A stretch of 64,000 nt of DNA from Candidatus Neptunichlamydia sp. (lineage in GTDB: Bacteria; Chlamydiota; Chlamydiia; Chlamydiales; Simkaniaceae): NCBI GenBank assembly GCA_965233865.1, contig OZ247587.1, positions 640,001-704,000 on the forward strand, written 5' to 3'. This document shows, one piece after another, positions 13,478 to 29,523 of this stretch. The notes below the pieces were generated by a model that was not told the DNA's origin, ran no database searches, and worked only from the letters and a program-made list of their open reading frames with translations. The position numbers and the translations under genes were made by a program. How positions within the stretch are numbered: the first letter of the stretch is position 1; every line of letters begins with the position of its first letter.

Positions 13478-16400
13478 GTGCTAAATGTACAGCCCTCGAC
13501 ACATTTTAAAACGCCGCAAAACCTCCAAGCCCCCTCTAGTGACCACTCATGTGGTTATAGCTCTTTAGAAAGCTCCTCATCCACTTCTCCGCTTTCAAGA
13601 CCATTACCTTTAAGGCTCCCAAAAGCAAAATACCAAAAACTGTTTGCTGGTAGATCACATGAACCTCAAAAAAGACTAACTGCCAACAATAAACACATCC
13701 GAATCCTACAAACACAAATCAACAAAAAAATCCAAGGTAGCTATTTTTTCACTCCAGGGAAGCAAGAAGACGATCACTTCCAGAAAGTCTTCATAGATTT
13801 TTTCCGTGGCCTGCGTGGTGGAGAAACCTTGGTAAATTCTGCAGGAGAATCTTTAGCCAGGGGATTTGTTACTTATGATGATGTCTGCAATATCTATACA
13901 ACCGAACCAATAAAGGATGATGACAATGGATCATGGGATTTTTCAACCATCTATTCTCCGACTGACCAACTGATTGAAGAACTCAGCCAAATTCTTGAAG
14001 AAGAATACGGCCTCAAAGGACAGTTTCTTAAATCTTTGAGTAAATCCGGACAAAAAATTGGCAATGCGTTTCAACTCGAGACTCGCGACACCTGCCTTCG
14101 AGAGTTCCCTATCTTTCCCAGGGTATTCCCCCGTTGCATAGATACCTTGAAGGGGATATTTAGCAGCCTTTTGATAGAAGAATGGCTAAAGCAAGACATC
14201 GAAGAAATAAAAATCTATCTCAACGAAATTGACTACATAGATCGACGTGTACCTGGTTGTGAAGAGCTAAACAATGCAATCACTTTATGGACAACAGCAA
14301 AGCACTACGCTCAACAGCAACAGCAAAGAGACATCGCTCTTAAAACAAAACACAAAAATGAGCTAAAAGATGACCTATGTGGTACTGCAATCTCTGGGGG
14401 ATTATCTTTTGTAACGGGCAATCCAAGCTTCGTTATTGGGAAAGCCGCTCAAACAATAATGAACTCTCTTGGCAATAAGATCGACCCTGAAGGAAGAGAC
14501 AAGAGAATACAAGTTCTCAAAATATTTGGGGGTGTTGGACTTGGAAGCACTCTTGGGGGCAACACTTGGGACCTTGGAACAGCTTTAGGAGTAGATTTAC
14601 TCGACCTTGTGACTAAGTCAGAAAAAACAGAAAAATCTGAAAGCGCTCTTAGAAACTTAAGCGGATCTGTACTCAAAGGCGTATTAACCAAAGATAAAAA
14701 GAAGCTCATCTGCCAAATACTCAGTTGTAGCGTAGCTGAAGCAGTGAATCAGCTTCCAGAGACTGATGAAAAAACATCGCTAGAGATGCGCATTGCACGG
14801 GCACTTTTAACAAATAGCGACATGCAATCTCACTACATCAATCAGTACGTAGACAAAAAGTTCAAAAAAGCTCCCAAGCAAACCTTAAGTGACGAAACTG
14901 CGGCAAAAGACCCTAATATTAGCAAGCCATCACAAGAAATAGAGATGCACGACCAGGCCCTTTACTTAAGACTAGTGGAAGAACAAAAGCAAAACAATCT
15001 CGCATTAAAGAAAGTTACTGAGAAACTAAATAACCCCCATTACTCAGAGTTTGGAAGCGCCGCAAATACACTGATAGAGAAAGAAGCTGGTGTTAAAGAA
15101 GCTCAGAAAAAATACGATAAAAAGCTCGCTATAGAGCGCAAAGTATTTGGACCAAGGAAAGAAATAAAAGCAGAGAAAAAAACAAAAAGCGCCAATAAGA
15201 ATCTTAAAAAAGCCAGTGGAGAAAAAGCTGTTGTTGACCAATTCATAAGCAACACAAGTAATGAAATCTCTAAACTACAAAAGAAGATATCAAGCAATAT
15301 TCAAGCACAAGCTGAGGCTAGCGCTCCCAAACACATAATCCCTCCAACGCCAGAGCTAAAAGCTCCTTTTGCTAAATCATCAAAAAAGACCAAGAACCAT
15401 CATGTGGCCTATTTCGATATGCAAGGGCAAAAACAGAGTCTTGGAAAATACAAAACAGCAGGAGATGCGAACCTTATCTCTGGAGCTTGGTCTCATTTTG
15501 AAGTCATTTCAAAAAACCTAGAGATGCGCTGTTATGCAGCCCAAGAGCAGCTTGTCTCTCAAGGAACACACGTAGATAACATTCCAGAAAGGCCAAAGCT
15601 AGAAAAGCCGCAATTCTCTGGAAATGACGCTTCTAAAAACCACCAAAAGATCCAAAAAACTCGCATACAAAATCAGAAAAAAGTAGAACAATACCTCACA
15701 CAGCTTGGAGATCTCTCTATAACGCCACTAGAAAAAACTGGCTTGACCAAAGGAGACATAAATCGTATAGCACGCGATATGACTCCAACAGCAAAGGATC
15801 CTAAAGAGCATGGCGTCTTCTATAAAGCATGGAGACTTCCAAAAAAAGGACTCGATAAAACAACAAACTTCTTAAAAAAGATAGGATTTACTGGAGAAAT
15901 AACAGTAGCCAATATGGACCTCTATAAAATGAAAGCTCTTAACCTTAGTGATCGCTATCTTCCAAAAGAAGCTCCAGTAAAAGCAATACCAATACCTAAA
16001 TACGGATGGGAACAACTTCAAGATCATCACCAGCAAGTCATAGCAAAGATTCTTGAAAAAAAGACAGTAGCACAAAAAGCACCCTCTAGAGCGCTAAATT
16101 ATGGTAAAGTATTTGGAAATGGTGTTGCTAATGGAGTACAGCTGCCTCCGACAGACCTCAATCATCTTGGTCGAAACAACGAACTTCCACGAGTAATTAT
16201 TCCTCAAAGGCAAATGCAAGTAGCAAGATTTTCTGGTTCTATGGAATTTGCCTTGATCGATGCAGAACGACAGTCAAAATTTGTAATGAGAGCCGCAAAT
16301 TCCGTAAAAAATGTTGCCGTTAATGACTTCACAAAAAGCGTTCCAAAAGGTAGTACTAAAGTTCTACGAGGCATCTGCACTTTAATGCTTCCAGATATGT

Positions 16401-17428
16401 CTGATATCCCAGGAGCAGAATGTCCAAAAAAGCACCTTAGAAAATTCTCCAACAATGCTCTATTCAAGTATGACAAGCTTGTACATATCAAGGATCCTCA
16501 TTCTTTCGTTGCAAAAGCTGGAGAGTTCGTTGGTGAGGTAATCTCTCTTGGAGGCATTGGCAGAGTGGCCAGAGTCGCAGAAGGCATCAGCATCCTCGGA
16601 ATGGCCAGTGAAGGCGGCGTAGTAGGCCTTGTTATGGCAGAAGTTCATGGAACAAATAAAATCTCTGGGGTAGCGTTTGGTTTTGGTGGAGGAGCCGTCG
16701 CAGGGTCAATACCTATAGCGTTTAGAGCGCTGAAGCCTATGAGAGCCACTAGCCCACTGCAGGATAGGGCCCTGAATCTTTCTATATCAAGAAATGAAGC
16801 AGGCATGCAGCTACTAGAAAACCGCGCTCTGCGATGTGGATTTGTAAGTGATAAAACTGTTGAGAATCTTGCTGGTAGAGAAATCGCCTATATAAAACCC
16901 TTCGAGATGTTATACGTTAAAAAAGGTCCAAAGCTTGAGTGGTGGAAGGCTGCAAGCCCAAAGATTGATCATCTTAAGCGAATAGCTAAAACACCAAAAA
17001 AATTTTATGGTTCCCTGACAAGAGAGTTTGGATCCCAAAATTTATCAGAACTTCAGATTCGCAGGGTCTTGGACTATTCTGGATTTAAGTCTTTTGAGAA
17101 TCCAAAGTATTTTCCTGCTCAATATGTAGCAGAGTTTGCAAAGAAAAATGCAGGTATTGTTTTTAGAAAACCTGGGACCATATACAAAGAAAACATCCTC
17201 ATCAGAATCTGCTCAGGTCTGCGTAACGAGAATCCAGTGACTGCAATTATTGAGGGTAAACAGATGAATGGTACGATGAGGCAACAAACGCATTATGTGG
17301 TTCAAACAAAGGGAAATTTAAAACGTACAATTGATGATAGATGGGTTAGAGCAGATGCTCTTAACAAGGAAAATCAAGCACTAACACATATTCCATTGAG
17401 CGAATATCAATTTAAGGGGTGGGAATAA
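13478..17428 (+). CDS. Large hypothetical protein, polymorphic-toxin/effector-like
   Basis: 1316-aa ORF; Ser-rich N-terminus, glycine-zipper hydrophobic segments, Lys-rich coiled coil, C-terminal ..RQQTHYVVQTKG..THIPLSEYQF; start uncertain. Confidence 0.6.
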   Translation: MLNVQPSTHFKTPQNLQAPSSDHSCGYSSLESSSSTSPLSRPLPLRLPKAKYQKLFAGRSHEPQKRLTANNKHIRILQTQINKKIQGSYFFTPGKQEDDHFQKVFIDFFRGLRGGETLVNSAGESLARGFVTYDDVCNIYTTEPIKDDDNGSWDFSTIYSPTDQLIEELSQILEEEYGLKGQFLKSLSKSGQKIGNAFQLETRDTCLREFPIFPRVFPRCIDTLKGIFSSLLIEEWLKQDIEEIKIYLNEIDYIDRRVPGCEELNNAITLWTTAKHYAQQQQQRDIALKTKHKNELKDDLCGTAISGGLSFVTGNPSFVIGKAAQTIMNSLGNKIDPEGRDKRIQVLKIFGGVGLGSTLGGNTWDLGTALGVDLLDLVTKSEKTEKSESALRNLSGSVLKGVLTKDKKKLICQILSCSVAEAVNQLPETDEKTSLEMRIARALLTNSDMQSHYINQYVDKKFKKAPKQTLSDETAAKDPNISKPSQEIEMHDQALYLRLVEEQKQNNLALKKVTEKLNNPHYSEFGSAANTLIEKEAGVKEAQKKYDKKLAIERKVFGPRKEIKAEKKTKSANKNLKKASGEKAVVDQFISNTSNEISKLQKKISSNIQAQAEASAPKHIIPPTPELKAPFAKSSKKTKNHHVAYFDMQGQKQSLGKYKTAGDANLISGAWSHFEVISKNLEMRCYAAQEQLVSQGTHVDNIPERPKLEKPQFSGNDASKNHQKIQKTRIQNQKKVEQYLTQLGDLSITPLEKTGLTKGDINRIARDMTPTAKDPKEHGVFYKAWRLPKKGLDKTTNFLKKIGFTGEITVANMDLYKMKALNLSDRYLPKEAPVKAIPIPKYGWEQLQDHHQQVIAKILEKKTVAQKAPSRALNYGKVFGNGVANGVQLPPTDLNHLGRNNELPRVIIPQRQMQVARFSGSMEFALIDAERQSKFVMRAANSVKNVAVNDFTKSVPKGSTKVLRGICTLMLPDMSDIPGAECPKKHLRKFSNNALFKYDKLVHIKDPHSFVAKAGEFVGEVISLGGIGRVARVAEGISILGMASEGGVVGLVMAEVHGTNKISGVAFGFGGGAVAGSIPIAFRALKPMRATSPLQDRALNLSISRNEAGMQLLENRALRCGFVSDKTVENLAGREIAYIKPFEMLYVKKGPKLEWWKAASPKIDHLKRIAKTPKKFYGSLTREFGSQNLSELQIRRVLDYSGFKSFENPKYFPAQYVAEFAKKNAGIVFRKPGTIYKENILIRICSGLRNENPVTAIIEGKQMNGTMRQQTHYVVQTKGNLKRTIDDRWVRADALNKENQALTHIPLSEYQFKGWE

Positions 17429-18459
17429 TGATACCTGAGCCTGATAAGTTGGAAGAAGAAGAGAAAAAGGAACTTAGGGAATTTTACCCTTTATTCATAG
17501 CTGAAAAAATTATTGAATTAACTCCAGAGATTAATGAACAACCACGCACAAAGATTACAGATTTCTACCCTCTATGCACAGCAATCTGGAAAATTTCCAA
17601 CGCAGAATACCAAGAGCGCTTCTGGGTAAGGCAAGAGCCTCCTATGTTGCATGCAGATAACTATATGGAAACGCTTGAAACTTTTCTATCTAATGGAGAG
17701 GCTGTTCTTTTGGCTAATGATGCTGAAAGAATTTCTATGACACCCAAGCAACGCGAGATGCTGCAGAAGCTATATGATATAGTCGATGATTTTGATGGGG
17801 ATGGTGATACACCAGACGATTCTGGATACGGCTTTAACGATTCTGCAATCATTGCTGACTATAGGTGGCATAAGATCCAAGCCTACGCCAAGCTCGTTTA
17901 TGAAGAGATCACCGGAGAAGACCTCGATGAATGGGAAAGATCGCGTCCTCCAAGAGCAAAGCGCCCTGAGATAAAGCAAAGAGACGCAACAACAGAAGAG
18001 ATTCGTGCAGAAGAGAAAAAAATCTACCCAACCTTCCTAATTGAACAATTTAAAAGCCGTCAGACTATTCCTGAGACGAGTCTTTATCATTACCTGATCA
18101 ACATGTATTTAGAAATTTGGACAGTATCTAACCAGGGATACCAAGAGCGTTTTTGGGTTAGGAAAGAGTTTCCTCTATACGATGAAGAAAATTGCATGAA
18201 AACGTGTTCTAGGTATCTATGTGATGTGGTGACAGTGATACGTGGTGCTGAAGATAACAAGCTTGATGTGACAATGAAGCAATGCTCTATGCTCAAGAAG
18301 CTCTCTGAAATGATCAAAAATTTCAAAAAAGATCCTAATAGGCCAGATGATCCAGGGTATGGTATTAATGATAGTGAAATTATTGCCTGTGAAAAGTGGC
18401 AAGAAATAAGAGACTATGCCAAGTGTGTCTATGAAGAGCTAACAGGAGAAAAGTCTTAG
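17428..18459 (+). CDS. Tandem-duplicated domain protein, candidate immunity protein
   Basis: ATG overlaps upstream stop (TAATG 17426-17430); two copies of IWxxSNxxYQERFWVR...KQxxMLxKL...PDDxGYGxNDSxIIA..W.xI..YAKxVYEExTGE. Confidence 0.6.
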   Translation: MIPEPDKLEEEEKKELREFYPLFIAEKIIELTPEINEQPRTKITDFYPLCTAIWKISNAEYQERFWVRQEPPMLHADNYMETLETFLSNGEAVLLANDAERISMTPKQREMLQKLYDIVDDFDGDGDTPDDSGYGFNDSAIIADYRWHKIQAYAKLVYEEITGEDLDEWERSRPPRAKRPEIKQRDATTEEIRAEEKKIYPTFLIEQFKSRQTIPETSLYHYLINMYLEIWTVSNQGYQERFWVRKEFPLYDEENCMKTCSRYLCDVVTVIRGAEDNKLDVTMKQCSMLKKLSEMIKNFKKDPNRPDDPGYGINDSEIIACEKWQEIRDYAKCVYEELTGEKS

Positions 18460-18513
18460 CTTCGGAGATCTCCAAGACGAGTACAAAGACTCTGTTTTAT
18501 CTCGGGTATGTTA

Positions 18514-19338
18514 GGTTGTGTTGAGAAATTTCCATAAATGGTGCAAGCTGACTTCCTGAAGAAGGAGATCTATATGCTATACCCGCATAAAATAAATGAC
18601 CACGCCTGGTCGAAACTTTACGAATATCTGAGTAATTACCCCAAAATACATACAAATAACAAAGAGAAAACTCGTTGCTTTGTAGAGGCTGTATTTTGGA
18701 TTGCCAAGAGTGGAGCACAATGGCGTTTGCTACCAAAGGAATATGGAGACTAGAATGCCGTCTATCATCGTTTTGCAGACTGGGCTGAACATGGTGTGTG
18801 GTACAAGATGCTCTACTATTTTTCAAATGATCCAGACATGGAATATATTATGATCGACAGTACAGTCCTCCGCGCTCATGCCTGTGCCGCAGGAGCCAAT
18901 AAAAAAAAACCGGAGGTCAAGACGAGCAGGCCTTAGGTCGGTCCTGCGGAGGTTTTACGACTAAAATCCATAGTATCTGTGATGCATTAGGTAATCCACT
19001 TGATTTTATTTTAACAGGTGGTCAAGCAGCTGATTGTCATCAAGCTATTCCTTTGCTCAAAGGTAGGGATTACAAAGGCTACGACAGCAATGCAATCATT
19101 GATCATGTAAAGAGCATCGGAGCTGTTGCCATCATTCCCTCAAAGAAAAATCGCATTGATCATCGAGAGCATGATAAAGACATATATAAAGAACGACACA
19201 AAATCGAATGTTTATTTGGCTTCCTCAAACATTATAGACGATTGTTTTCTCGGTTCGAGAAGTTAGCATCAAGGTTCAAGGCATTCCTTCATTTTATCGC
19301 GGCTCTCCAATGGTTAAAGTAAATTTCTCAACACAACC
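18514..19338 (+). mobile_element. IS5-family element, copy 1 (defective)
   Basis: 18-bp perfect IRs GGTTGTGTTGAGAAATTT flanked by TA; orfA (SGAQWRLLP, MIDST) has TGG>TAG at 18751; orfB has an 18-bp deletion relative to copy 2. Confidence 0.93.
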
Positions 19339-19359
19339 TATTCCTCCTAATAAATATTT

Positions 19360-19716: not shown

Positions 19717-21162
19717 ATGCGTCATTTTTTATCTGGAATTGTTTTAATTATCTGCTTACTTTCTACACAAATTGAAGGGAAAGAAACGGGAGCAAGTGAC
19801 TCCATAGCTTACGGTAAGCGGTATCCAAGTTATAAAAATACCCCAGGAAAAACTTTTTCGCAGCCGTTCATTGAAGTTGCCAAAGGATGTATTCCTTCTG
19901 TGGTCTTTATCAGAGCAGAAGGAGGAATGAACAATGAATCTAACCAAATGTTCAATGATGACTTCTTTAATCACTTTTTTGGTGGACCTCCAAAACGTTC
20001 CCAACAACCTCAAGTAAGCCAAGGTTCAGGGTTTATTATTTCGAAAGAAGGCCATATTATGACCAACCTTCATGTCGTGAGAGGGGCAAAAAAGCTAACT
20101 GTATCACTTCAAGATGGTACAAACCGTCAAGTATCGGCAACTTACATCGGTGGAGATAGCCATACCGATATTGCAGTGATTAAACTTGATGATACATATG
20201 GAAATAATTATCCCTCTTTGGAATTAGGAGACTCTGATGATTTAGAAGTTGGTGAATGGGTTGTTGCAATTGGAAACCCTTTCTCTTTAGAAGCAAGTGT
20301 TTCTGCTGGAATTATCAGCGCAAAAGGACGTCAAGGACTCCAAATTACGGACTACGAAGATTTCATTCAGACAGATGCAGCCATTAACCCAGGGAATTCC
20401 GGTGGGCCTCTAATTGACCTCGATAAAAAAGTTGTGGGCATGAACACTGCGATTGTTTCCCAATCAGGAGGCTACATGGGAATTGGTTTTGCCATTCCGA
20501 GCAATATTTTGGTGAATATCAAAGAGCAGCTAGTTGAAAATGGTGTAGTCACTCGGGGGTTCCTAGGAGTGTCACTGCAACCTATCGATAGCGACCTTGC
20601 TGAAGCGTTTAGAACAAGTACTACTCAAGGAGCACTTGTTGTCGATATCGTTGAAGGATCTCCTGCCGAAGAAGCAGGGCTCCAACAAGGTGACATTATC
20701 ACAAAGATGAACGAAATGCCTGTGAAAGGACCTGGACAGTTGCGCAATGATGTTGTACTTCTTCCTCCAGGCACTAAGGTGAATCTTACAATCAATCGCA
20801 ATGGTAAAACAATGAATCTACCGGTTACTTTGGGAACCTTCGGGGCAAATACCTTAGTGTCTAGCACAACCGCTTCCCAGTACCTTGGATTCTCTGTTGA
20901 CAACCTCACGAATCATAACATTCAACAGTACAAATTCAATCAAGAGGACAAAGGAGTCGTTGTTGTTACGGTTGAACCAAATACACCTGCCGATCAAGCA
21001 GGGATCAAACCAGGATTCCTCGTGATGGCCGTAAATCATCAAAAGGTCGCCACTGTCACTGAGTTTAATGAATCTCTCCAGAATGTGAAGCCAGGAGAAC
21101 GAATTCTTCTTCTGATGCGCCAAGGGCAAGTCATGAAGTTCTACACTCTTAAGGCTCAATAG
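19717..21162 (+). CDS. htrA: Periplasmic serine protease HtrA/DegP
   Basis: Signal peptide, GSGFII, TNLHVV, TDIAVIK, QTDAAINPGNSGGPL, two PDZ domains. Confidence 0.95.
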   Translation: MRHFLSGIVLIICLLSTQIEGKETGASDSIAYGKRYPSYKNTPGKTFSQPFIEVAKGCIPSVVFIRAEGGMNNESNQMFNDDFFNHFFGGPPKRSQQPQVSQGSGFIISKEGHIMTNLHVVRGAKKLTVSLQDGTNRQVSATYIGGDSHTDIAVIKLDDTYGNNYPSLELGDSDDLEVGEWVVAIGNPFSLEASVSAGIISAKGRQGLQITDYEDFIQTDAAINPGNSGGPLIDLDKKVVGMNTAIVSQSGGYMGIGFAIPSNILVNIKEQLVENGVVTRGFLGVSLQPIDSDLAEAFRTSTTQGALVVDIVEGSPAEEAGLQQGDIITKMNEMPVKGPGQLRNDVVLLPPGTKVNLTINRNGKTMNLPVTLGTFGANTLVSSTTASQYLGFSVDNLTNHNIQQYKFNQEDKGVVVVTVEPNTPADQAGIKPGFLVMAVNHQKVATVTEFNESLQNVKPGERILLLMRQGQVMKFYTLKAQ

Positions 21163-21263
21163 GGATTTTCATGAGAAAAATGGTGAGATCTTGTAGACTT
21201 TTTAAAGAGTCTTCTTCTATTTTTTTACGGCCACCGGATTCCATTTCATAGAGGCGGTTTAAT

Positions 21264-21743
21264 CTATCCTGCATTGACATTTTCTTTCTTGCTTATTTCT
21301 TTAAATACTTTTGTTATTTTTTGTAGATGCTCGACTACTCCCTCTAATGGAACGCACTCTGATATTTCATTTTTATATATTCTGCTTTTACAAACTGGGC
21401 AGCCTATTCCATTGCCTTGATCTACTGTTTGTCTACTTGATACAAGCGATCTGATTGTTTCTCTATTTAAAACATGCCCACATTTAAACACTCCTGGGAT
21501 GTTGTCCAGATTAAAAGGCTCCATAGTCACAGGGTCCAACGCATCAGGAGGAAGTTCCTCGCATAATGGCCTGAGTTCTTCTACTATCCCATCATTCTTT
21601 ATCTTGCTGGCCTTTACATCACGAACCTCAGATTCTTGAAGTTTCAATTGATCTCGCATTTCAGCTTCCTGCGTTTCAAGCTGCTGTCTGACAAATTGTT
21701 CAAAGTAAATAGTGTTTGATTGTAGACTTAATATGGCTGTCAT
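21264..21743 (-). CDS. Coiled-coil + RING/U-box-like protein (paralog 1, no partner gene)
   Basis: LRPLCEELPPDALDPVTMEP...CGH...CPVC; ATG at 21743 preceded by a TATAAT element shared with paralogs. Confidence 0.8.
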   Translation of the reverse strand: MTAILSLQSNTIYFEQFVRQQLETQEAEMRDQLKLQESEVRDVKASKIKNDGIVEELRPLCEELPPDALDPVTMEPFNLDNIPGVFKCGHVLNRETIRSLVSSRQTVDQGNGIGCPVCKSRIYKNEISECVPLEGVVEHLQKITKVFKEISKKENVNAG

Positions 21744-21933
21744 CTTGTTTATCCTCTTACCTTTATTATAACATACTCTGCACGGAATCATTGAATGAAA
21801 TCGTTCAAAATCAAAAATATTTTAGACCTTCGTTTCATAAAAATTCAACGCTTGCTGTTTACTGGATTTATATTTGCTGGTAAAGCTACAAAGGGATAAA
21901 ATGAGAATTAGACGAAAACAATGGATGATAATC

Positions 21934-22248
21934 ATGGACTGGACGCAAGCACTTACTGTTATAGGAGTTTTCATTGGTGGGTTTATCTACATGATGAACA
22001 AAATAGACGCAAATAAGAAAGACACTGATACAAAAATGGAGTCTCATCAAAAAGAAAATAACACACGCTTTAATGGCATAGAAAACCGTTTAACTGCCAT
22101 GGAAGTTGAAGTTAAAAACATCAATCAAAGAATCGATGACTTTAAACATGAAACAAGCCAAAGACTCTCTACGATTGAAGGGTATCTAGTCCCAAAGAAG
22201 GTATTTCACTTTGAGGAAAATAAAGACGAAGAACCCAAAGAGAACTAA
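21934..22248 (+). CDS. Small protein with N-terminal TM helix and coiled coil
   Basis: MDWTQALTVIGVFIGGFIYMM then heptad-rich RFNGIENRLTAMEVEVKNINQRID; start approximate. Confidence 0.65.
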   Translation: MDWTQALTVIGVFIGGFIYMMNKIDANKKDTDTKMESHQKENNTRFNGIENRLTAMEVEVKNINQRIDDFKHETSQRLSTIEGYLVPKKVFHFEENKDEEPKEN

Positions 22249-22372
22249 GACATCTATCATGCTAACTGATAATGAAATGCTACAAAAACTTCAGGAATCT
22301 TTAGAGCTAAGATTCGATGATCAGAAGGATTTATTTCTGTACGAATGCCCAAAAAATAGCAATCAGCTTTTG

Positions 22373-22813
22373 CTATTTACTCTCTGAAGAATTTTCTATC
22401 TCAGGAAGCTCATTTCTATGATGATCTAGGGCTTCTTTTTTGATCTTTTTAACAGCTTCTTTCCAGGTTGGTCTATTCAAGAATTTAATGCTTTCAACAT
22501 AGGCATCAGCTTTATCAAGCTCTTCAGCAAATTTGTAATATCTAAAGGGAGGCTGCACTTTTACTCTATGATCCTTGGAAATACTATAGACGATATTACG
22601 AAGCTCTATCCCAACATGCGGCACCTTGATTTTTACTGTGCTTTGAGCTATCCACTTTGATTTCACTTTGCTGTAGGGATAAATCTCTAGGACTTCTGTT
22701 TCCTCCATAATTGAAGCCTCTTCAGCTGTGGATGGTGCTTCATTAGCTTTTTCCTTTTTCTTTCGTTTAATTCTCTCTTTTGCCGTTTCTGCGACTGTGC
22801 TCTCTTGAGTCAC
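22373..22813 (-). CDS. Hypothetical protein, weakly SpoVG-like nucleic-acid-binding
   Basis: Last gene of the 4-gene minus-strand cluster; VKIKV..GIELRNI....V.VQPP.R......Y...IKF pattern loosely like SpoVG. Confidence 0.45.
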   Translation of the reverse strand: MTQESTVAETAKERIKRKKKEKANEAPSTAEEASIMEETEVLEIYPYSKVKSKWIAQSTVKIKVPHVGIELRNIVYSISKDHRVKVQPPFRYYKFAEELDKADAYVESIKFLNRPTWKEAVKKIKKEALDHHRNELPEIENSSESK

Positions 22814-22856
22814 TTTTTTACCCTGTTACTCCACTGTAAATTTTTAGTTGTAAGTT

Positions 22857-23201
22857 CTAATCATAATCTTTGAATTGCGCTCTATCTGACAATGCTTTTG
22901 GTCGTTTGAAACTTCTTGGCAGTACAGAATCTCTACTACTGAAGTTCATAGATTTCGCAACTTTAGGACGAGCTTCTTTGGCTATAATAATATTGCCTTC
23001 AAGATTTGCACTATCAAGTCTTCTGATTGCTAGTTTTGCTTCGGAATCTACCAGCATTGTAACAAATCCAAAGCCACGGGATACTTGCGTTTCATGATCT
23101 ACGATGACTTTTGCGGACAATACTTTTCCATATATGCTGAAGAGTTCTTTGAGTTGAGATGATGTTACGCTTAAGGGGAGGTTTTTTACGAATATATCCA
23201 T
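22857..23201 (-). CDS. RRM (RNP-1) RNA-binding protein
   Basis: RNP2 IFVKNL and RNP1 RGFGFVTM, C-terminal EARPK. Confidence 0.92.
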   Translation of the reverse strand: MDIFVKNLPLSVTSSQLKELFSIYGKVLSAKVIVDHETQVSRGFGFVTMLVDSEAKLAIRRLDSANLEGNIIIAKEARPKVAKSMNFSSRDSVLPRSFKRPKALSDRAQFKDYD

Positions 23202-23212
23202 GCTTTATCCTT

Positions 23213-23728
23213 TTAAACTTCGCTATTAATCATCCTTATGGCCTTGAGGTACCTTCCAAAGTGAGCTTTTTGTAGATAATTTAAGAGCTTTCTTCTTGCA
23301 AAGACATATCTTACTAAGAGCGCTCTCATGCTTAAGAACTCCTTAGTTTCTTTATCAACGCCATGCATGTCTATTTCTAATCTTTGAATTTTTTCGGTAT
23401 ATACGCCAATTTCCACGTCGCATGAAGCATTGTCCTGAGGAGATGTTTGCCACCGTTTGATGATGTCGCGCATGTCAACGATGTCAATACTATCAACCGT
23501 GCTTGATTTATTAGAAAGAGGCTTGCTTTTCTTGACTCTACTCGGAGGGACAAAATTTCGGATGGTTTTTTCGCAGTAGAAATTCTTGCCACTTACTTTC
23601 TTGCTTGGTTGAAAAACTCTTCTAGAAAGATAGCCTTTGAATAAATCTATAGAACAGCCAATGATCTGCGCTGCTTGCTTGGTGCTGATTAACTGACTTG
23701 TTTGTTGCGATTGTGTTTTCTCTGACAA
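23213..23728 (-). CDS. HTH DNA-binding domain fused to ribosomal protein S15-like domain
   Basis: LISTKQAAQIIGCS (excisionase/MerR-like HTH); C-terminal DNASCDVEIGVYTEKIQRL...RRKLLNYLQK....RY...I matches uS15; likely TTG start at 23728 after AAGGAG. Confidence 0.7.
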   Translation of the reverse strand: MSEKTQSQQTSQLISTKQAAQIIGCSIDLFKGYLSRRVFQPSKKVSGKNFYCEKTIRNFVPPSRVKKSKPLSNKSSTVDSIDIVDMRDIIKRWQTSPQDNASCDVEIGVYTEKIQRLEIDMHGVDKETKEFLSMRALLVRYVFARRKLLNYLQKAHFGRYLKAIRMINSEV

Positions 23729-23771
23729 GCTCTCACTTCTCCTTCTTAAAAAAGAAAGATACTTCCATAAA

Positions 23772-24512
23772 TCACGGTTTAGGAACAAGCTTTTCGTAAG
23801 CTGTCTTTGCAGCAATTTGCTCGGCTTGCTTTTTTGAGGTGCTTTCTCCTGTAGAGAGGTTATCGTCATTGAGGGTTAATTTTACTTTGAACATTGGAGC
23901 ATGATCAGGGCCGCTTCGTTCTGCGAGTGTGAAGATTAGTTGTCCCATACGATTTTTTTGGCAAAACTCATTCAAGAGGCTTTTCCAGTTCTTTTCAGCG
24001 AATTCTAAGGAATCCTCCAGCTCAATATTGAATTTATCAAGAAACATGTTGTGTATTGGCTCTAGAGATTTCCCAGCGTCGAGATATACAGCAGTTAGGA
24101 TTGCCTTAAAACATTTTCCTTTGAATGGAGCGATCTGTGCATCTGGGTTGATTAAGCCATGAGGGCATTGATATAGGTAGTGATTAAAAACCTGAAGTTT
24201 GTCGATGTACTTAACACAAGCATCGTTGCTAATATGCTTCGTTAGCATGGTGTTTTTTATGGACTTGTCTGCAGAGTGATGGTTCGCTTCGATATAGTCT
24301 GCGATAGCAAGCTGCAAAAGATAGTTTCCACGCCATACGAAATCTTCATTGGTTTCTCCGTCGTCGCTGACCATCCCCACCAAAGGAAAGCTAGAGTCCA
24401 TAAATGCTCTTGTTAGTAGATCCGTATCGTTGAATTTATGAGAGAGAGACTTTTCGATATTAGGAATGTTTTTCTGAAGGCTTGAGACCATTTGTATTGC
24501 TAGATTTGTCAT
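23772..24512 (-). CDS. RNase III-like protein with degenerate active site and intact dsRBD
   Basis: LSHKFNDTDLLTRAF; signature NEDFVWRGN (vs NERLEFLGD); GKCFKAILTAVYLD (vs ADxxEAxxGAxYLD); dsRBD KSLLNEFCQK..GPDHAPMF..SKKQAEQIAA. Confidence 0.85.
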   Translation of the reverse strand: MTNLAIQMVSSLQKNIPNIEKSLSHKFNDTDLLTRAFMDSSFPLVGMVSDDGETNEDFVWRGNYLLQLAIADYIEANHHSADKSIKNTMLTKHISNDACVKYIDKLQVFNHYLYQCPHGLINPDAQIAPFKGKCFKAILTAVYLDAGKSLEPIHNMFLDKFNIELEDSLEFAEKNWKSLLNEFCQKNRMGQLIFTLAERSGPDHAPMFKVKLTLNDDNLSTGESTSKKQAEQIAAKTAYEKLVPKP

Positions 24513-24701
24513 AAGAGGGGCCTTTTATTTTGTTTTGGGTGAAAGATTAACACAAAGAGAAATTTTGGGGAGATCTCCAAAAAACAAGGCTCAGATTTGC
24601 GCTGTGTTGCGCTGTTGGAGACTTAGAGTTGTGTTGGGATTGCGAGAAGATAAATCAGCTTAAAACGTGATTAAATGAGAATATGCGTGTTTAAGTATAA
24701 T

Positions 24702-24738
24702 TAGTTGGGATTTGGAAGGCTTTAATGTGAATTTAGTT
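24702..24738. repeat. Cassette downstream repeat, copy 1
   Basis: TAGTTGGGATTTGGAAGGCTTTAATGTGAATTTAGTT, 35/37 identical to 28032-28068. Confidence 0.85.
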
Positions 24739-24755
24739 AAAGTTTACGAAAAATA

Positions 24756-25937
24756 TCAAGTTCCAAAGTGACTATTGAAGGTGTTAAATAATTCTGGTCT
24801 ATTTGCAAAGCGCCCTTGTCCAATAAGAATATCTCGAAGTGATTCATTTACTTGTTCTCCATCATCATCAAATTGGGGGTAATCGTCCTCAATTATTGAT
24901 TTAATAAACCCTTTCCCACGCAACATATGACCTGGATGGAGATTTGCATAGTTTTCAACTGTGTCTTGGAAGTTTTCCTCCCCAAGACCTGAATTTATTC
25001 CAATATGACCGAGACGAGGACGTTTACCAAATTCTCTCCTAGCTGCATTCTCGTCATTTTCTATATTTCTGGCCTCTTCTAGGTCTGAATATAATGATGG
25101 AATTCCAGATGGATGAATCATTGGCAATGGAATAGATCTTCTGTTTATGGACTCTTGAGGATCTTTTAAAAAGGCTCTTTGATGGCCGTGTTCATGAAGC
25201 AAGTCATCTACAGTTCTTGGTTGTTTACCATAGAACGTACGTCCTTCATAATCATGACGCATTCTTGTGGAATCTTCTGATTCTTCCTCGTCACTAGGAA
25301 ATAAAAGTTCACCGCTATTAAGTTGTGATTGAGTAAATGGTGCCTTCTTTCCAGGAGGTTCGTATATCTCTAGATGATGTAAGGGCTCCGTTCCGTATCC
25401 AGTAACCATGTCTTTTTGCTCGAATTGTCCATCTGCTCCTTGCTTAACTCCGAAACCAAACCTATTACTGTGCGAGAATGGTAGCTTTGATTTTTGATGT
25501 TTTTCTATGTCATCCAGTAAAACTTTAAAATAACTTGGAGCTCCCTTAGATGCTATTCTTGCATCTTCCATAATCGCGTCTTTATCTTCAGAATCACCAC
25601 TAAAATCAAATAAGGATTCGTATCTATCTGTCAATACGTCTGAGAGGGAGCGCTGAGATGGTAATGGAAACTTCGCCTGCCTAGCTGGGAGGCCTCCTGT
25701 ATTGAAAGTATAGTTTAACTCCTTGGAATCTAAAGGAAATTTTGATTGACGTGTGGGGACTGATTCTGGACCAACATGCACGACATTTTTTCTTATTGGG
25801 CGTGAAGAGTCCACGTAGACTACATTTTCCCTCACTCTTTGAGGGGAATCAACGTAAACTACACTTTCTCTTTTTGTACCTTTTTTTTGCATTTTCAGGT
25901 TCAAGCGCTGCTGCTTTCTTCTTCGGTTGTGCTTCAT
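24756..25937 (-). CDS. HExxH zinc metallopeptidase-like protein (NleD/M91-like)
   Basis: LLHEHGHQ followed by EEARNIENDENAARREFGKRPRLGH; repetitive basic N-terminus; overlaps the upstream RING gene. Confidence 0.6.
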   Translation of the reverse strand: MKHNRRRKQQRLNLKMQKKGTKRESVVYVDSPQRVRENVVYVDSSRPIRKNVVHVGPESVPTRQSKFPLDSKELNYTFNTGGLPARQAKFPLPSQRSLSDVLTDRYESLFDFSGDSEDKDAIMEDARIASKGAPSYFKVLLDDIEKHQKSKLPFSHSNRFGFGVKQGADGQFEQKDMVTGYGTEPLHHLEIYEPPGKKAPFTQSQLNSGELLFPSDEEESEDSTRMRHDYEGRTFYGKQPRTVDDLLHEHGHQRAFLKDPQESINRRSIPLPMIHPSGIPSLYSDLEEARNIENDENAARREFGKRPRLGHIGINSGLGEENFQDTVENYANLHPGHMLRGKGFIKSIIEDDYPQFDDDGEQVNESLRDILIGQGRFANRPELFNTFNSHFGT

Positions 25938-26388
25938 TATTTTTTACCGTTTTTTTAAAAATTTTTGTTACTTTTTCAAGATGTTCTACTGTTTCATCAA
26001 ATGACTGATCATACAAGAAAAAATAGCCTCTTGTTTCTGTTCGACAAACTGGACAAGGTATCATGTCGTCTTTTGCCAACCCCATTGATTTTGCAACACT
26101 AACAGCCGTTTCAGAGCTTAATGAATGGCTACAACGCATCACTAAAGGAGTTCTCATCGGTTCATATGTCACTGGATCTAAAGCACAGTCAGGCAATTCT
26201 TCACAAAGTGGTCTTAGTTCTTCTACGATTCTATTATTCGTTATATTCTTAGCTTGCACTTCCCCCATCTCAGCTTCCCGTTCTTTTAGTTGGTCTCGCA
26301 TTTCGGATTCTTGTGTTTCCAGCTGACTACGCATGGCATTTTCAAAATAAGAAATGGTTCTCGTTGGTGTAATTGCTATGGATGACAT
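25849..26388 (-). CDS. Coiled-coil + RING/U-box-like protein (paralog 2)
   Basis: LRPLCEELPDCALDPVTYEPMRTP...CSH...CPVC; AAGGAG RBS; basic C-terminal extension. Confidence 0.8.
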   Translation of the reverse strand: MSSIAITPTRTISYFENAMRSQLETQESEMRDQLKEREAEMGEVQAKNITNNRIVEELRPLCEELPDCALDPVTYEPMRTPLVMRCSHSLSSETAVSVAKSMGLAKDDMIPCPVCRTETRGYFFLYDQSFDETVEHLEKVTKIFKKTVKNNEAQPKKKAAALEPENAKKRYKKRKCSLR

Positions 26389-26405
26389 GTTGTTCTCCTT
26401 GGGGT

Positions 26406-27431
26406 TTAACCTGCAAAAGCTGTGTTATAGCCTAGCCTAGTTGGTTGTATCTGTTCTCCCCTTTCATCATTCTCTTGAATTCCTTGAAATGTTTTCATCA
26501 CATCTTCTAACCAGCTTTTTGAGAATTTCCCATCGCCTTTTACTGAGCTCCAAAGAGAGCGTACTGGGTAATTATTTCCTTTTCTCGTTATAAAAACATG
26601 GTCTTCTGGCCTATCTTCATTGGCAAAAACAGTTGTCCCATCTGGAAGATCAAAATCTTGTAATTTATTATAGTCGATTTCGCCACGATTTCCAGGCGGA
26701 TTTAAAACATCTATAAGCCTTTCACCATAGGAAAGGCTGTATTTTCCAGGTTCTGTAGCTCTTTGAAGGCGTTCTTGTACTTCTTCTTTTTTCAGCTTGC
26801 CTCTTGAGATTAAGTCATAGCAAACCCCTTCAGCACAGTTCATCGTCTTTGGTTTTGAGCCTTTTTCGCTGTTATGGTCACTTCCATACTCGTCTGTAAC
26901 CCACCTTCCAAACGGTCTGGAGGAATAATCTTCATGGTCAGCAATAGGACCCCAGGCTACGTTCTTGTAATATTCAGAGTCATCTGGGTTTGTGAATGGT
27001 GTTCCTGGTTCTGATTCTCTTGAAGAGATTTGATCAAAAAGTCCTTCTTCAAACTCTCTATATTGCGGTTGTAGAGCAGAATGCAAACTCTGACTATCTG
27101 GAATCTGATCAAACATTTCCTCTTCTAACCCTCTGAATCGAGGTAGAGTCTGTAATAGATTTATTTGAGAATCTTCTAGCTCTAAGCTAGCATCATATCC
27201 ATATGGAAAACCAATATTACGGTTTGGTTCCTCATCTGAATCATAGTCCGGTGCATTTTTTGTAGGCATGGGTGTTTTATAGATAGTTGAAGTAGGTCGA
27301 AGAGGTGGAGGAGGTACTGGCCTGTATGAATATTCTCTAAGAGTTGCCATCCACTTTGCCATATCAATAGGCTGGTCTCCCATTTCTGGATCATATCTAG
27401 CAAACTGCTTTTTTCTATAATTACTCGGCAT
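26406..27431 (-). CDS. Papain-like (Cys-His) domain protein
   Basis: MNCAEGVCYDL...PDGTTVFANEDRPEDHVFITRKG..PVRSLWS; paralog of 28073-29083; start overlaps the end of RING paralog 3. Confidence 0.6.
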   Translation of the reverse strand: MPSNYRKKQFARYDPEMGDQPIDMAKWMATLREYSYRPVPPPPLRPTSTIYKTPMPTKNAPDYDSDEEPNRNIGFPYGYDASLELEDSQINLLQTLPRFRGLEEEMFDQIPDSQSLHSALQPQYREFEEGLFDQISSRESEPGTPFTNPDDSEYYKNVAWGPIADHEDYSSRPFGRWVTDEYGSDHNSEKGSKPKTMNCAEGVCYDLISRGKLKKEEVQERLQRATEPGKYSLSYGERLIDVLNPPGNRGEIDYNKLQDFDLPDGTTVFANEDRPEDHVFITRKGNNYPVRSLWSSVKGDGKFSKSWLEDVMKTFQGIQENDERGEQIQPTRLGYNTAFAG

Positions 27432-27822
27432 ATTTTTTAAAGATTCCGCTTATTTTTTTAAAAATTTCCACACAACCTTCTATAGGAATATATGGGTAAA
27501 GCATGTTGATTGTTGTTGAGGAGTTGCAAGATGGGCATTTTATTAAATCCTGCTTGTATAGCTTTTGTGTTTTAGCAATGCTCACAACTGTAGAAAGATT
27601 CAATGCGTGACCACACCTATATACTATACTTCTGTCTAAAGGCTCAAAAGTAACAGGGTCCAACGCGTCTGGAGGTAGTTCTTCGCACAAAGGCCTTAGT
27701 TCTTCAACAATCTTGCTATCTCTTGTCTGTCGTTCTTTATATCTCTCTTCAAACAATTCATCAATCGACATTGTTTGTGTTGCGACAGTAGTGCTGTTTT
27801 TTGGTGTGATTGATATGCTCAT
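27421..27822 (-). CDS. RING/U-box-like protein (paralog 3)
   Basis: LRPLCEELPPDALDPVTFEPL...CGH...CPSC; ATG at 27822 with AAGGAG RBS. Confidence 0.8.
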   Translation of the reverse strand: MSISITPKNSTTVATQTMSIDELFEERYKERQTRDSKIVEELRPLCEELPPDALDPVTFEPLDRSIVYRCGHALNLSTVVSIAKTQKLYKQDLIKCPSCNSSTTINMLYPYIPIEGCVEIFKKISGIFKKYAE

Positions 27823-28020
27823 CTTGTTCTCCTTGTGTCTATTATAACACATTTTGCACTGAATCGTAGCATGAATTCTTGTGTTTTTAAAAAATTTTTC
27901 ATGTAGAAATGCAGGGAGTATATCATGATAGGAATAACACGTATTTTGAATTTTTGATTCGTGCGCAAATCCGCCTGACCAAGAATAAAAAAAGAATGCT
28001 TTTTAGGGGTGGCCCCCTTT
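27820..28020 (-). repeat. Cassette upstream repeat (201 bp) with promoter and RBS, copy 1
   Basis: Ungapped match to 29521-29721 with about 19 mismatches by hand count; contains TGtTATAAT and AAGGAG on the minus strand. Confidence 0.9.
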
Positions 28021-28031
28021 TTAAGGGTAAC

Positions 28032-28068
28032 TAGTTGGGATTTGGAATGTTTTAATGTGAATTTAGTT
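28032..28068. repeat. Cassette downstream repeat, copy 2
   Basis: 35/37 identical to 24702-24738; ends 4 bp from the stop of 28073-29083. Confidence 0.85.
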
Positions 28069-28072
28069 CAAA

Positions 28073-29083
28073 TTATCGCATTTGTTGAAGAACAGGATCT
28101 GCAAAGGCTGTGTTGTAGCGAAGAGTTGTTTCTTTTCCATCCATTCCTTTCTCTTTGTAAAATTCATCTACAACGTCTTTTAGCCAACTTCGGGAAAAAT
28201 TACCGCTTCCCCGGTTTTTACTCCATAAAGAACGTACTGGATTACTCTCTCCAGTTCTTGTCATAAAAACATGGTCTCCTGGACTTTCGTCGTTTGCAAA
28301 TATAACAGATCCAGCAGGAATATTGTGTTTTCCAGATTGCACGTCATCATAGCTAACGGTTTTTCGAGTATCCTTAGGGTCAAGCACACTTAATAGACTG
28401 TCTGAATATGCGCGACCGACCGTTGGTCTCTTTTCTCCCCCCGGAAAATCAGCCGTAAGCCTTTCTCTGAGCTTTTCTTTATCTAGTTTTTCTCTTGAAA
28501 GAAGGTCGTAGCAAACACCTTCATAGCAATTCATCTTATTCGGTTTGTAATCGGAGTTTCCGTGAAGCCAGTCAGCAAATTGAGTTTGTTCTAGTCGGTC
28601 CGTGTTAATTGGCTCCCATTCGAGATTGTTGTAATATAGAGCTTCATCGGGTGGGGTTTCGCTTCTTTTTTGAAATGGGATTTTTCTTACGTCTTCTTGA
28701 AGATCTTCGGGACGGTAACGTCTTGCTGAACTAGATTTTGATCTTATGTTTTTGGGGAGTCCCCTTAAGTCTTCTTGTAAATCTTCGGGACGGTAACGTT
28801 CTTCCCCTAACCTTGAGTTTCTTGCTTCATATTCTGTTGTATATAAAGGCTTCATTGCTTTTTCGTATTCAGTCTCTACAGGATCGCCAGGGCGATAGTT
28901 TTGAAGCGCGTCCCTAAGTGAGACTTTATTTTCCCGTGCATCTTTTGCTCGTTGGTACATGTCTTTAAGGGTTACTTCGTCTATCTTGCCTTGTTCGTAG
29001 AGTCGGCCAAGACTACTAAGAATGCTCTCTTCTTCGCTTTCTAGATCTAGTGGTTGTTTAAGAGGATCAATGTAGTAGCTCAT
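28073..29083 (-). CDS. Papain-like (Cys-His) domain protein
   Basis: MNCYEGVCYDL...PAGSVIFANDESPGDHVFMTRTG..PVRSLWS; internal RYRPEDLQED x2; ATGA overlap with RING paralog 4. Confidence 0.6.
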   Translation of the reverse strand: MSYYIDPLKQPLDLESEEESILSSLGRLYEQGKIDEVTLKDMYQRAKDARENKVSLRDALQNYRPGDPVETEYEKAMKPLYTTEYEARNSRLGEERYRPEDLQEDLRGLPKNIRSKSSSARRYRPEDLQEDVRKIPFQKRSETPPDEALYYNNLEWEPINTDRLEQTQFADWLHGNSDYKPNKMNCYEGVCYDLLSREKLDKEKLRERLTADFPGGEKRPTVGRAYSDSLLSVLDPKDTRKTVSYDDVQSGKHNIPAGSVIFANDESPGDHVFMTRTGESNPVRSLWSKNRGSGNFSRSWLKDVVDEFYKEKGMDGKETTLRYNTAFADPVLQQMR

Positions 29084-29523
29084 GTGTTCTTCGCAAATAC
29101 CTTACTTATTTTTTCAAAAATTTCAACGCAGCCCTTTAGACTTACAGAAACAAAAAAATCATTTAGAACGGATTTATTCTTACATACCGGACAACTCATT
29201 AGGTCTTGTTGGCATAAATTGCTAGCCTTCGCAATAGCGACTATTGTCGAGGAATTTATAGTGTGACCACATCCATACGTTGCTGGCTTATAAAGAGGCT
29301 CCATGGTCACAGGGTCCAATGCATCATTAGGAATCTCCTCACAAAGTGGTCTCAACTCTTCTACAATCTTGCTGTCTCTTGCCTTTTCATACTTAAGCTC
29401 TCTTACTTCAGCTTCTCGTTCTTTTAATTCTGCTCGCGCTTCGGATTCTTGCGTTTCGAGCTGATCTCTGACAAATTGCTCAAAGTACATCGTGTTGTTT
29501 TGAATGCTTAATATGACGGACAT
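29080..29523 (-). CDS. Coiled-coil + RING/U-box-like protein (paralog 4)
   Basis: LRPLCEEIPNDALDPVTMEPLYKP...CGH...CPVC; ATG at 29523 with AAGGAG RBS. Confidence 0.8.
   Translation of the reverse strand: MSVILSIQNNTMYFEQFVRDQLETQESEARAELKEREAEVRELKYEKARDSKIVEELRPLCEEIPNDALDPVTMEPLYKPATYGCGHTINSSTIVAIAKASNLCQQDLMSCPVCKNKSVLNDFFVSVSLKGCVEIFEKISKVFAKNT

Follow-up and report, generated by a model that had tools for sequence, protein, structure and literature searches.

The DNA analysed here, a stretch of 64,000 nucleotides from Candidatus Neptunichlamydia sp. (Chlamydiota; Simkaniaceae; positions 640,001 to 704,000 of contig OZ247587.1, GenBank assembly GCA_965233865.1) and hereafter called the window, contains a gene for a ribonuclease III (RNase III) paralogue that has lost most of the acidic residues needed for catalysis; we refer to its product as dead RNase III. 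A sequence-only reading had proposed that this gene encodes an RNase III pseudoenzyme of full length, in which four catalytic acids are replaced and the domain that binds double-stranded RNA (dsRNA), or dsRBD, keeps its motifs. The open reading frame (ORF) is indeed complete, and its parts are the following.

23772..24512, minus strand: coding sequence of the dead RNase III paralogue (P0001), 246 amino acids with an ATG start (ORF list and translation)
24018..24455, minus strand: RNase III-like domain, residues 20-165 (PF14622 match)
24324..24350, minus strand: degenerate signature motif NEDFVWRGN, residues 55-63 (DNA reading and alignment with Protein Data Bank (PDB) chains)
24102..24119, minus strand: GKCFKA motif, residues 132-137, with the invariant C134 between K133 and K136 (DNA and PDB-chain alignment)
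23787..23987, minus strand: dsRBD, residues 176-242 (Pfam dsrm)

With one RNase III domain followed by one dsRBD in a chain of ~220-250 amino acids, dead RNase III has the domain order of the class-1 enzymes. The dsRBD matched Pfam dsrm (PF00035) at 70.6 bits (1.6e-19) over profile positions 1-66 of 66, passing the gathering cut-off of 23 bits. The nuclease domain was aligned with the RNase III Pfam profile, as the sequence-only reading had suggested, and scored 21.4 bits, below the PF14622 cut-off of 35; also, the whole protein scored 95.3 bits with the equivalog model TIGR02191, below its cut-off of 166.25, with model positions 2-219 of 219 covered. The same genome (G000; 1.83 Mb in a single contig, 41% GC) has a normal rnc gene that adjoins radA, namely one of 235 amino acids with NERLEFLGD and FEAIIGA intact and 231.2 bits in TIGR02191. 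An AlphaFold 2 (AF2) model of dead RNase III, built with 57 aligned sequences, had a mean predicted local distance difference test score of 86. When this model was submitted to Foldseek, bacterial RNase III chains were the best matches (E-values of 2.5e-13 to 1e-12; T. maritima 1o0w and A. aeolicus 2ez6 and 1rc7), and mitoribosomal chains came next (1.6e-10 to 1e-9, 17-18% identity); the latter (chain c) are presumably mL44, an inactive protein. Residues 1-170 fell in generic RNase III clusters of the ESM Atlas (0.91-0.92), and the match in PHROGs was confined to an RNase III-like family that is generic and has no name (phrog_28637, 59.8 bits). In the AF2 model the first 14 residues, which are conserved in the family described below, form a helix.

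Seven acidic residues are conserved in RNase III, namely E38, E41, D45, E65, E100, D114, and E117 of the E. coli enzyme (PMC8708148). Their positions were mapped with HMMER alignments to the RNase III chains 3n3w (C. jejuni), 1o0w, and 2ez6 and with a 57-row alignment of 18 family rows and 39 canonical RNase III rows.

E. coli E38, here E56, kept: family E in 18/18; canonical E in 30, Q in 9
E. coli E41, here V59: family V/M/I; canonical E in 39/39
E. coli D45, here N63: family N in 18/18; canonical D in 39/39
E. coli E65, here K83: family K/M/R; canonical E in 39/39
E. coli E100, here L120: family L/V/M/Q; canonical E in 27/39
E. coli D114, here K133: family K in 18/18; canonical D in 31/39
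E. coli E117, here K136: family K in 18/18; canonical E in 39/39

The four replacements that had been noticed by eye (E41V, D45N, D114K, and E117K) are all confirmed by the DNA and by the alignments with PDB chains and canonical rows, and the total is larger: six of the seven acidic residues are replaced, and E56, the equivalent of E38, is the sole survivor. The signature reads EDFVWRGN as opposed to the canonical ERLEFLGD, in which E41 and D45 are metal ligands; W60 stands at the position of E. coli F42, and the invariant R61 at that of L43. E117 coordinates both Mg ions in an enzyme whose catalysis is essentially driven by two metals (PMC3867540), and its replacement by Lys, Ala, or Gln in E. 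coli abolishes cleavage and leaves binding (PMC8708148); the behaviour of E117K as given in the sequence-only reading, binding without cleaving, hence agrees with the mutation table of that article. We infer that the two-metal site cannot form in dead RNase III. Given the sequence and the published mutant data, the protein is very probably unable to cleave by the RNase III mechanism, because the carboxylates that hold Mg are replaced, two of them by lysines.

The dsRBD, in contrast to the nuclease-like domain, has stayed canonical. Across the 57 rows K177, G201, H204, and F208 are invariant, K227, A230, E231, Q232, A234, and A235 are nearly so, and the regions that contact RNA (the K/N-E of helix 1, the GPxH loop, and the KKxAE start of helix 2) are conserved in dead RNase III; N181 takes the position of A. 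aeolicus Q157, as placed by eye from the alignment. The motifs described as kept are therefore residues common to canonical enzymes, in keeping with the dsrm score. In sum, the 246-residue protein appears to be a natural pseudoenzyme with the architecture of a bacterial class-1 RNase III. Public pipelines annotate members of its family as "ribonuclease-3", which probably misstates what they do.

Among 5.8 billion clustered proteins we found 28 relatives with 56-89% identity, a few of them fragments, and below these the scores drop sharply to those of canonical RNase IIIs, none of which exceeds 30% identity; the best match bears the NCBI label Candidatus Neptunichlamydia sp. REUL1. When the window protein was aligned with 27 of the relatives (fragment P0027 omitted), N55, E56, F58, W60, R61, G62, and N63 in the signature region and N77, H78, H79, K131, K133, C134, F135, and K136 further on were found invariant in 28 of 28 rows. 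The ratio of nonsynonymous to synonymous substitution rates (dN/dS, Nei-Gojobori) was 0.047 between the window gene and its copy in a congener, G034, and 0.048-0.099 for the pairs of loci L034/L035, L036/L038, L036/L040, and L038/L040; the pairs were limited to those with unsaturated synonymous sites, most deeper pairs being saturated. The reading frame is intact in all nine full-length loci examined. The gene is under strong purifying selection and is not decaying. The description of the protein as "selected non-cleaving" thus holds in its first part through dN/dS values of 0.047-0.099 and fixed substitutions, and in its second part by inference from sequence and mutant data.

The two domains have evolved differently. 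Mean pairwise identity within the family is 0.69 in the nuclease-like domain and 0.64 in the dsRBD, and identity to canonical enzymes is only 0.21 in the former but 0.38 in the latter, the canonical enzymes being 0.43 identical to one another in either domain. These identities indicate that the nuclease domain underwent remodelling and has been preserved since, while the dsRBD stayed canonical. A global charge reversal of the nuclease-like domain was also considered and rejected, as its mean net charge is -4.1 versus -2.7 in canonical enzymes.

As for the origin of the family, a profile search of 1.84 billion representatives revealed no sequence that bridges it to canonical RNase III. In that search the family consisted of one 50%-identity cluster (P0016, 455 bits), the divergent P0124, and one dsRBD fragment, followed by multi-dsRBD proteins and then by canonical RNase IIIs at 130 bits or less. 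P0124 is a 203-residue fragment (234.6 bits) with the motifs NESLVWLGN and KTTCFK; it keeps the V, the N, and the second K and has T at the position of K133. Eleven of the first 13 full-length canonical matches were at least 48% identical to chlamydial Rnc. We also built a maximum-likelihood tree of 92 rows, namely 11 from the family, 33 chlamydial or chlamydia-like, and 48 others, for which we took every other chlamydial locus and one in three of the "other" sequences. The dead family came out as one clade (SH-aLRT 100), whose stem measured 1.24 substitutions per site, and lay on the chlamydial side with an SH-aLRT of 86, the program having warned of long-branch attraction. Descent from a chlamydial rnc is hence likely but not secure. 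Canonical chlamydial Rnc, which shares the fold, is the probable ancestor, and chlamydia-like Rnc gave the best-scoring canonical matches in the search of 1.84 billion proteins; canonical chlamydial Rnc differs from dead RNase III in its intact active site, its radA neighbour, and its wide distribution in Chlamydiota.

Of 401 Chlamydiota genomes searched with the profile of the family, 400 were scored; canonical rnc was matched in 379 of these, and the dead family (threshold >143.4 bits) in two only: G000, with two copies (445 bits), and its congener G034, with one intact copy (439 bits) and a second one split by a stop codon. The remaining matches, at 143 bits or less, are canonical rnc, and the 13 other genomes of the same genus in the sample have only the canonical gene. 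No family member was found by tblastn among PLSDB plasmids (17 records, none above 28% identity, those with an annotation being canonical rnc) or INPHARED phages (2 records, 22.7% identity), nor in IMG/VR (one partial match of 35%), and a pattern scan of GTDB contigs from 185,579 species genomes confirmed none.

Ten metagenome loci, on the other hand, carry family members, and two of these (L043 and L039) turned out to be the ends of one contig of 30,170 bp, across which the dead gene is split. This contig is a circular molecule of ~30.05 kb, because its ends overlap exactly by 123 bp and an independent 12.9-kb contig spans the junction at 100% identity; other carrier contigs measure 27.8-34.2 kb. 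The gene content of the element, read from about two thirds of the circle, includes replication genes (a DUF927 primase, PolA with a proofreading exonuclease, and DUF3987 and Toprim-DUF3987 helicase-primases), an MT-A70 methyltransferase, a ResIII helicase, ParA, Xre- and excisionase-type helix-turn-helix (HTH) proteins, a ClpX-like ATPase (a second ClpX), DnaJ/leucine-rich repeat (LRR) proteins, an HPr-like protein, and a SocA/Panacea-domain protein. Neither capsid nor terminase was detected when its ORFs were scanned against PHROGs, the nearest thing being one weak match to a scaffold-like coiled coil. From this gene content the element appears to be plasmid-like. It is apparently chlamydial: among the 120 listed matches of its ClpX, 14 have an organism name, and all 14 are chlamydial (56-59% identity). 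G000 holds diverged homologues of the element's PolA, Toprim-DUF3987, and DUF3987, the last of which lies 3 kb from the second copy of the dead gene. The dead gene is supernumerary cargo of ~30-kb circular plasmid-like elements of marine Simkaniaceae-type chlamydiae, and in G000 it sits in two chromosomally integrated remnants. Of eight public sequencing runs that contain it, none is registered as RNA.

The two gene copies in G000 are identical over all 741 nt and lie in an inverted duplication. At two more loci with the same flanks, the part that corresponds to window positions 23827-24529 is swapped for an unrelated segment of 567 nt. The segments concerned are as follows (C1 denotes positions on the genome contig).

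21552..25650 and C1:185692-189776: 4.1-kb segment, inverted duplicate (blastn, 98.2% over 4104 nt)
C1:1223527-1224093 and 1758408-1758973: 567-nt replacement segment, boundaries identical at both loci
24513..24755, minus strand: intergenic region upstream of the dead gene; three further sites of the genome share its part 24530-24647 (blastn)

The 567-nt segment carries an ORF of 107-116 amino acids on the opposite strand, and a third, partial copy of it lies at C1:1285893-1286330. Upstream of the dead gene there is one sigma-70-like site (24759-24730), a kind of site that is no commoner than in shuffled sequences, and promoter and terminator counts did not exceed those of shuffled sequence. 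The 261-nt upstream region showed no stable fold (z of -0.96), a search of window positions 20500-27000 against Rfam gave no match at E-values up to 1, and around the dead gene (in the window, L040, and L038) the inverted repeats of 16 nt or more were limited to short, imperfect pairs.

Downstream of the dead gene, its cluster continues on the same strand with three further ORFs, of which the first encodes a protein with an HTH and an S15-like domain (HTH-S15-like hereafter) and the second a protein with an RNA recognition motif (RRM).

23213..23728, minus strand: excisionase/MerR-type HTH plus S15-like domain, 171 amino acids (Ribosomal_S15, 39.2 bits against a cut-off of 31)
22857..23201, minus strand: RRM protein, 114 amino acids, third gene of the cluster (RRM_1, 8e-19)
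22373..22813, minus strand: fourth ORF, 146 amino acids, 100% identical in the second copy
C1:187609-188115, 1222919-1223419, and 1268463-1268858: further copies of the HTH-S15-like gene in G000

The HTH-S15-like gene likely starts at TTG 23728, 43 nt past the stop codon of the dead gene; its longest ORF would extend to 23869, but its homologues begin near the equivalent of this TTG and carry HTH_17. The 146-residue ORF had no match in Pfam, PHROGs, or PADLOC. The true rpsO lies elsewhere in G000 and scores 113 bits, as compared with 37-41 bits for the four S15-like paralogues; a relative of the latter is labelled "30S ribosomal protein S15" by NCBI, and this label is probably wrong. In canonical S15, a loop bears the H/D/S residues that contact ribosomal RNA (rRNA). 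As read by eye, this loop differs in the S15-like proteins.

The HTH-S15-like family is found on the circular elements as well, where stand-alone RRM proteins have 72-114 amino acids and occur as a tandem pair in L040 (8745-9184). In L040 six genes follow one another with overlapping starts and stops, namely HTH-S15-like, RRM, RRM, orf106, orf168, and, as the last, dead RNase III. The order is S15-like, RRM, orf81, dead RNase III in L043 and L038, and S15-like, RRM, dead RNase III in L042; in the window and G034 dead RNase III is followed by S15-like and, in the window, then by RRM. A same-strand S15-like gene lies within 2 kb in nine of 12 loci (L004, L005, L036-L038, and L040-L043), among which L036 and L037 are almost identical, as are L038 and L043. 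Such a gene is lacking near L034, L035, and L039, the last of which is the second end of the circular contig. In L034, of which 650 nt upstream and 1.6 kb downstream are seen, the dead gene is solitary, with a divergent Xre-type HTH gene next to it. Conversely, another genome, G041, has no dead RNase III but a pair of diverged HTH-S15-like genes that adjoin a RecD-like helicase. The S15-like gene is hence a partner in two of the three family clades, and not an obligatory one. Prediction of a complex between dead RNase III and its S15-like neighbour scored 0.00 against a mark of 0.32, which is evidence neither way. PADLOC matched no defence system to the dead gene or to its neighbours in the window; the S15-like protein of L040 received only an HTH match (mad1).

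The wider surroundings contain the following mobile and multi-copy features.

18512-19340 and 30469-31315: insertion sequence (IS) of ~847 bp (DDE_Tnp_1_2 / DUF4096, IS5-like), bracketing the dead-gene region
29757-30299: resolvase gene
21264-21791, 25849-26388, and 26406-29553: ORF families present in multiple copies, unassigned in Pfam, with U-box/RING-like cysteine patterns

The IS has ~17 near-identical copies in G000. The U-box/RING-like ORF families recur in the genome at 180-190 kb and at 1.21-1.29 Mb with 72-97% nucleotide identity and look like expanded effector families. Immediately upstream of one IS copy, 13478-18459 (plus strand) holds two large ORFs (1316 and 346 amino acids) with no Pfam match. 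Further away, 39100-41436 (plus strand) encodes a class II aminoacyl-tRNA synthetase of 779 amino acids with a tRNA-synt_2 core, an anticodon OB domain, and an N-terminal B3/4 domain. The B3/4 domain belongs to PheRS beta, which makes the fusion unusual.

What, then, does a conserved RNase III do that has lost its carboxylates? We favour, with middling confidence, the idea that it would be a non-cleaving dsRNA binder that is encoded by a mobile element and competes with the host RNase III. Like its ancestor, the protein would probably be a homodimer; its site of action would be the bacterial cell, and it would bind duplex RNA without cutting it through the intact dsRBD and the remodelled, strongly constrained valley, so that the duplexes are occupied or shielded from cleavage by host RNase III. 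The most plausible substrates would be duplexes made by the element itself, e.g., sense/antisense pairs, and the protein would in many elements be co-expressed with small RRM proteins and the HTH-S15-like regulator. Rop/Rom of ColE1 and FinO of the F plasmid are likewise small proteins of plasmids, and they bind complexes of antisense and sense RNA that host RNases would process; the analogy with dead RNase III is functional only, as the folds are unrelated. Closer in structure are the E. coli mutant rnc70 (E117K), which has the same substitution as K136, and the A. aeolicus mutants D44N, equivalent to N63, and E110K, all of which bind dsRNA and do not cleave it (PMC8708148); the structures of the latter two, 2ez6 (D44N) and 1rc7 (E110K), are among the best fold matches of dead RNase III. 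These are, however, laboratory point mutants, whereas dead RNase III is a natural lineage in which six acids are replaced and the domain is 21% identical to canonical ones.

Several observations weigh against this idea. The copies are dispensable, one of two being broken in G034 and the gene being replaced at two loci of G000, and a candidate RNA target was not found in the form of an Rfam match, a long hairpin, or a stable leader. Nor does the net charge of the nuclease-like domain, which shows no gain in the positive direction, imply that the valley binds RNA more tightly. Support for placing the family with chlamydial Rnc is weak (SH-aLRT 86 with the long-branch warning), the partnership with S15-like and RRM proteins is not universal, as seen in the lone gene of L034 and in the S15-like genes of G041, and the effector-like U-box/RING neighbours leave room for a secreted role.

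A first alternative, which we regard as possible but unlikely, is that dead RNase III pairs with the active Rnc of the host, thereby either poisoning it as a dominant negative or turning it into a single-strand nickase, a mode of action that has been put forward for the KREN/KREPB pairs of the trypanosome editosome. RNase III is a dimer, and artificial heterodimers with one dead subunit nick dsRNA (PMC3867540); noncatalytic KREPB partners provide a precedent (PMC3867540, PMC6800513, PMC9508840), and a Trp at the position of F42 is tolerated in E. coli RNase III, the F42W enzyme being functional (PMC8708148). An active Rnc is also present in the same cell, and the canonical relatives nearest to the family are chlamydial Rnc. 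The nuclease-like domain is, however, only 0.21 identical to canonical enzymes, and the signature helix, which is part of the subunit interface (PMC8708148), is rewritten, with the invariant R61 in place of L43. A self-sufficient homodimer is also favoured because the gene moves between hosts on a plasmid.

A more speculative proposal, to which we give a slimmer chance, would give dead RNase III the part of specificity subunit in an RNA-duplex system carried by a plasmid, either as a strand-selective nickase together with host Rnc or as a recognition module with the S15-like and RRM proteins that controls replication or maintenance of the element. If so, W60-R61, N77-H78-H79, and K131/K133/C134/K136 would be a new recognition surface rather than wreckage; the nickase would be a bacterial counterpart of the endonuclease pairs in trypanosome editosomes, and the module with S15-like and RRM proteins would be a three-part RNA recognition system acting through sense/antisense duplexes.

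Distinctly unlikely, in our estimate, is a secreted effector that sequesters dsRNA in an amoeba or another eukaryotic host and blunts RNA interference or dsRNA sensing, much like the viral suppressors that bind dsRNA. Such a role would suit a chlamydia that is, judged by its relatives, obligately intracellular, a neighbourhood rich in multi-copy U-box/RING-like ORFs, elements that carry DnaJ/LRR proteins, and the RRM and dsRBD, which are domains common in eukaryotes. Type III secretion signals are usually variable and disordered, though, and the N-terminus of dead RNase III is conserved and helical; together with the translationally coupled operon of L040, which is headed by a bacterial HTH protein of the excisionase/MerR type, this would favour a role inside the bacterium. 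The effector reading also sits poorly with descent from a bacterial, probably chlamydial, rnc, and effectors binding host RNA were, as of 2017, reported to be unknown (PMC5570926).

Less probable still is a scaffold of a ribonucleoprotein, in which the dead domain would bind protein or rRNA as in mL44 and would act with the S15-like and RRM proteins on (pre-)ribosomal RNA. The mL44 chains are strong fold matches (E-values of ~1e-10), and in two of the three clades the neighbouring gene encodes a genuine S15-fold domain, but the rRNA-contact loop of the S15-like proteins is altered as judged by eye, and the S15-like pairing is absent in L034. The protein mL44 (MRPL44) shares with dead RNase III the layout of an RNase III-like domain and a dsRBD without catalysis; it differs as an integral ribosomal protein of eukaryotic organelles. 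We consider it very improbable that N77-H78-H79, H118, K131, K133, C134, and K136 form a metal-independent active or ligand site: conservation is higher in the nuclease-like domain than in the dsRBD, and the new invariant His, Lys, and Cys lie in regions aligned with RNA-binding motif 3 and the old active site, but such an enzyme is without precedent in the RNase III fold, and P0124, with NHP and KTTCFK, shows that H79 and K133 are not universal. A functionless, decaying duplicate of rnc, finally, is next to negligible in spite of the broken or replaced copies and is rejected, given a dN/dS of ~0.05, nine of nine full-length loci in frame, and invariance at the substituted positions.

Eukaryotic organelles are known to contain noncatalytic RNase III proteins, namely chloroplast RNC1 and trypanosome KREPB (PMC8708148, PMC3867540), as well as mitoribosomal mL44. 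Maize chloroplast RNC1 is noncatalytic, as dead RNase III very probably is, and acts via RNA binding (PMC8708148, PMC3867540), but it is eukaryotic and plastid-targeted and has two inactive RNase III domains; the likeness considered here is one of fold family. The trypanosome KREPB4-10 proteins have degenerate RNase III domains under selection and are thought to pair with active partners (PMC5648035, PMC6800513, PMC9508840, PMC3867540); these differ in their PUF or zinc-finger architecture, in the absence of a dsRBD, and in being mitochondrial. A review by Nicholson in 2013 was still asking whether members of the RNase III family act noncatalytically (PMC3867540). Judged by titles and abstracts, the papers listed for noncatalytic, degenerate, or pseudo RNase III concern trypanosome editosomes or Dicer or are two general reviews of RNase III, and our full-text searches, which covered the literature outside subscription-only papers, returned no description of a natural bacterial or plasmid-borne dead RNase III. 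Dead RNase III very probably is such a noncatalytic RNase III-like protein: the fold is kept, the carboxylates are lost, and the gene is under purifying selection.

In conclusion, the dead RNase III family appears to be a compact two-domain protein that evolution has fixed in a state of "bind but do not cut", and it could serve as a natural reagent for the capture of dsRNA. With an active paralogue in the same cell and a defined mobile element as its carrier, the possible use of RNase III decoys by bacteria or their plasmids, and the mechanism of such decoys, become directly testable.

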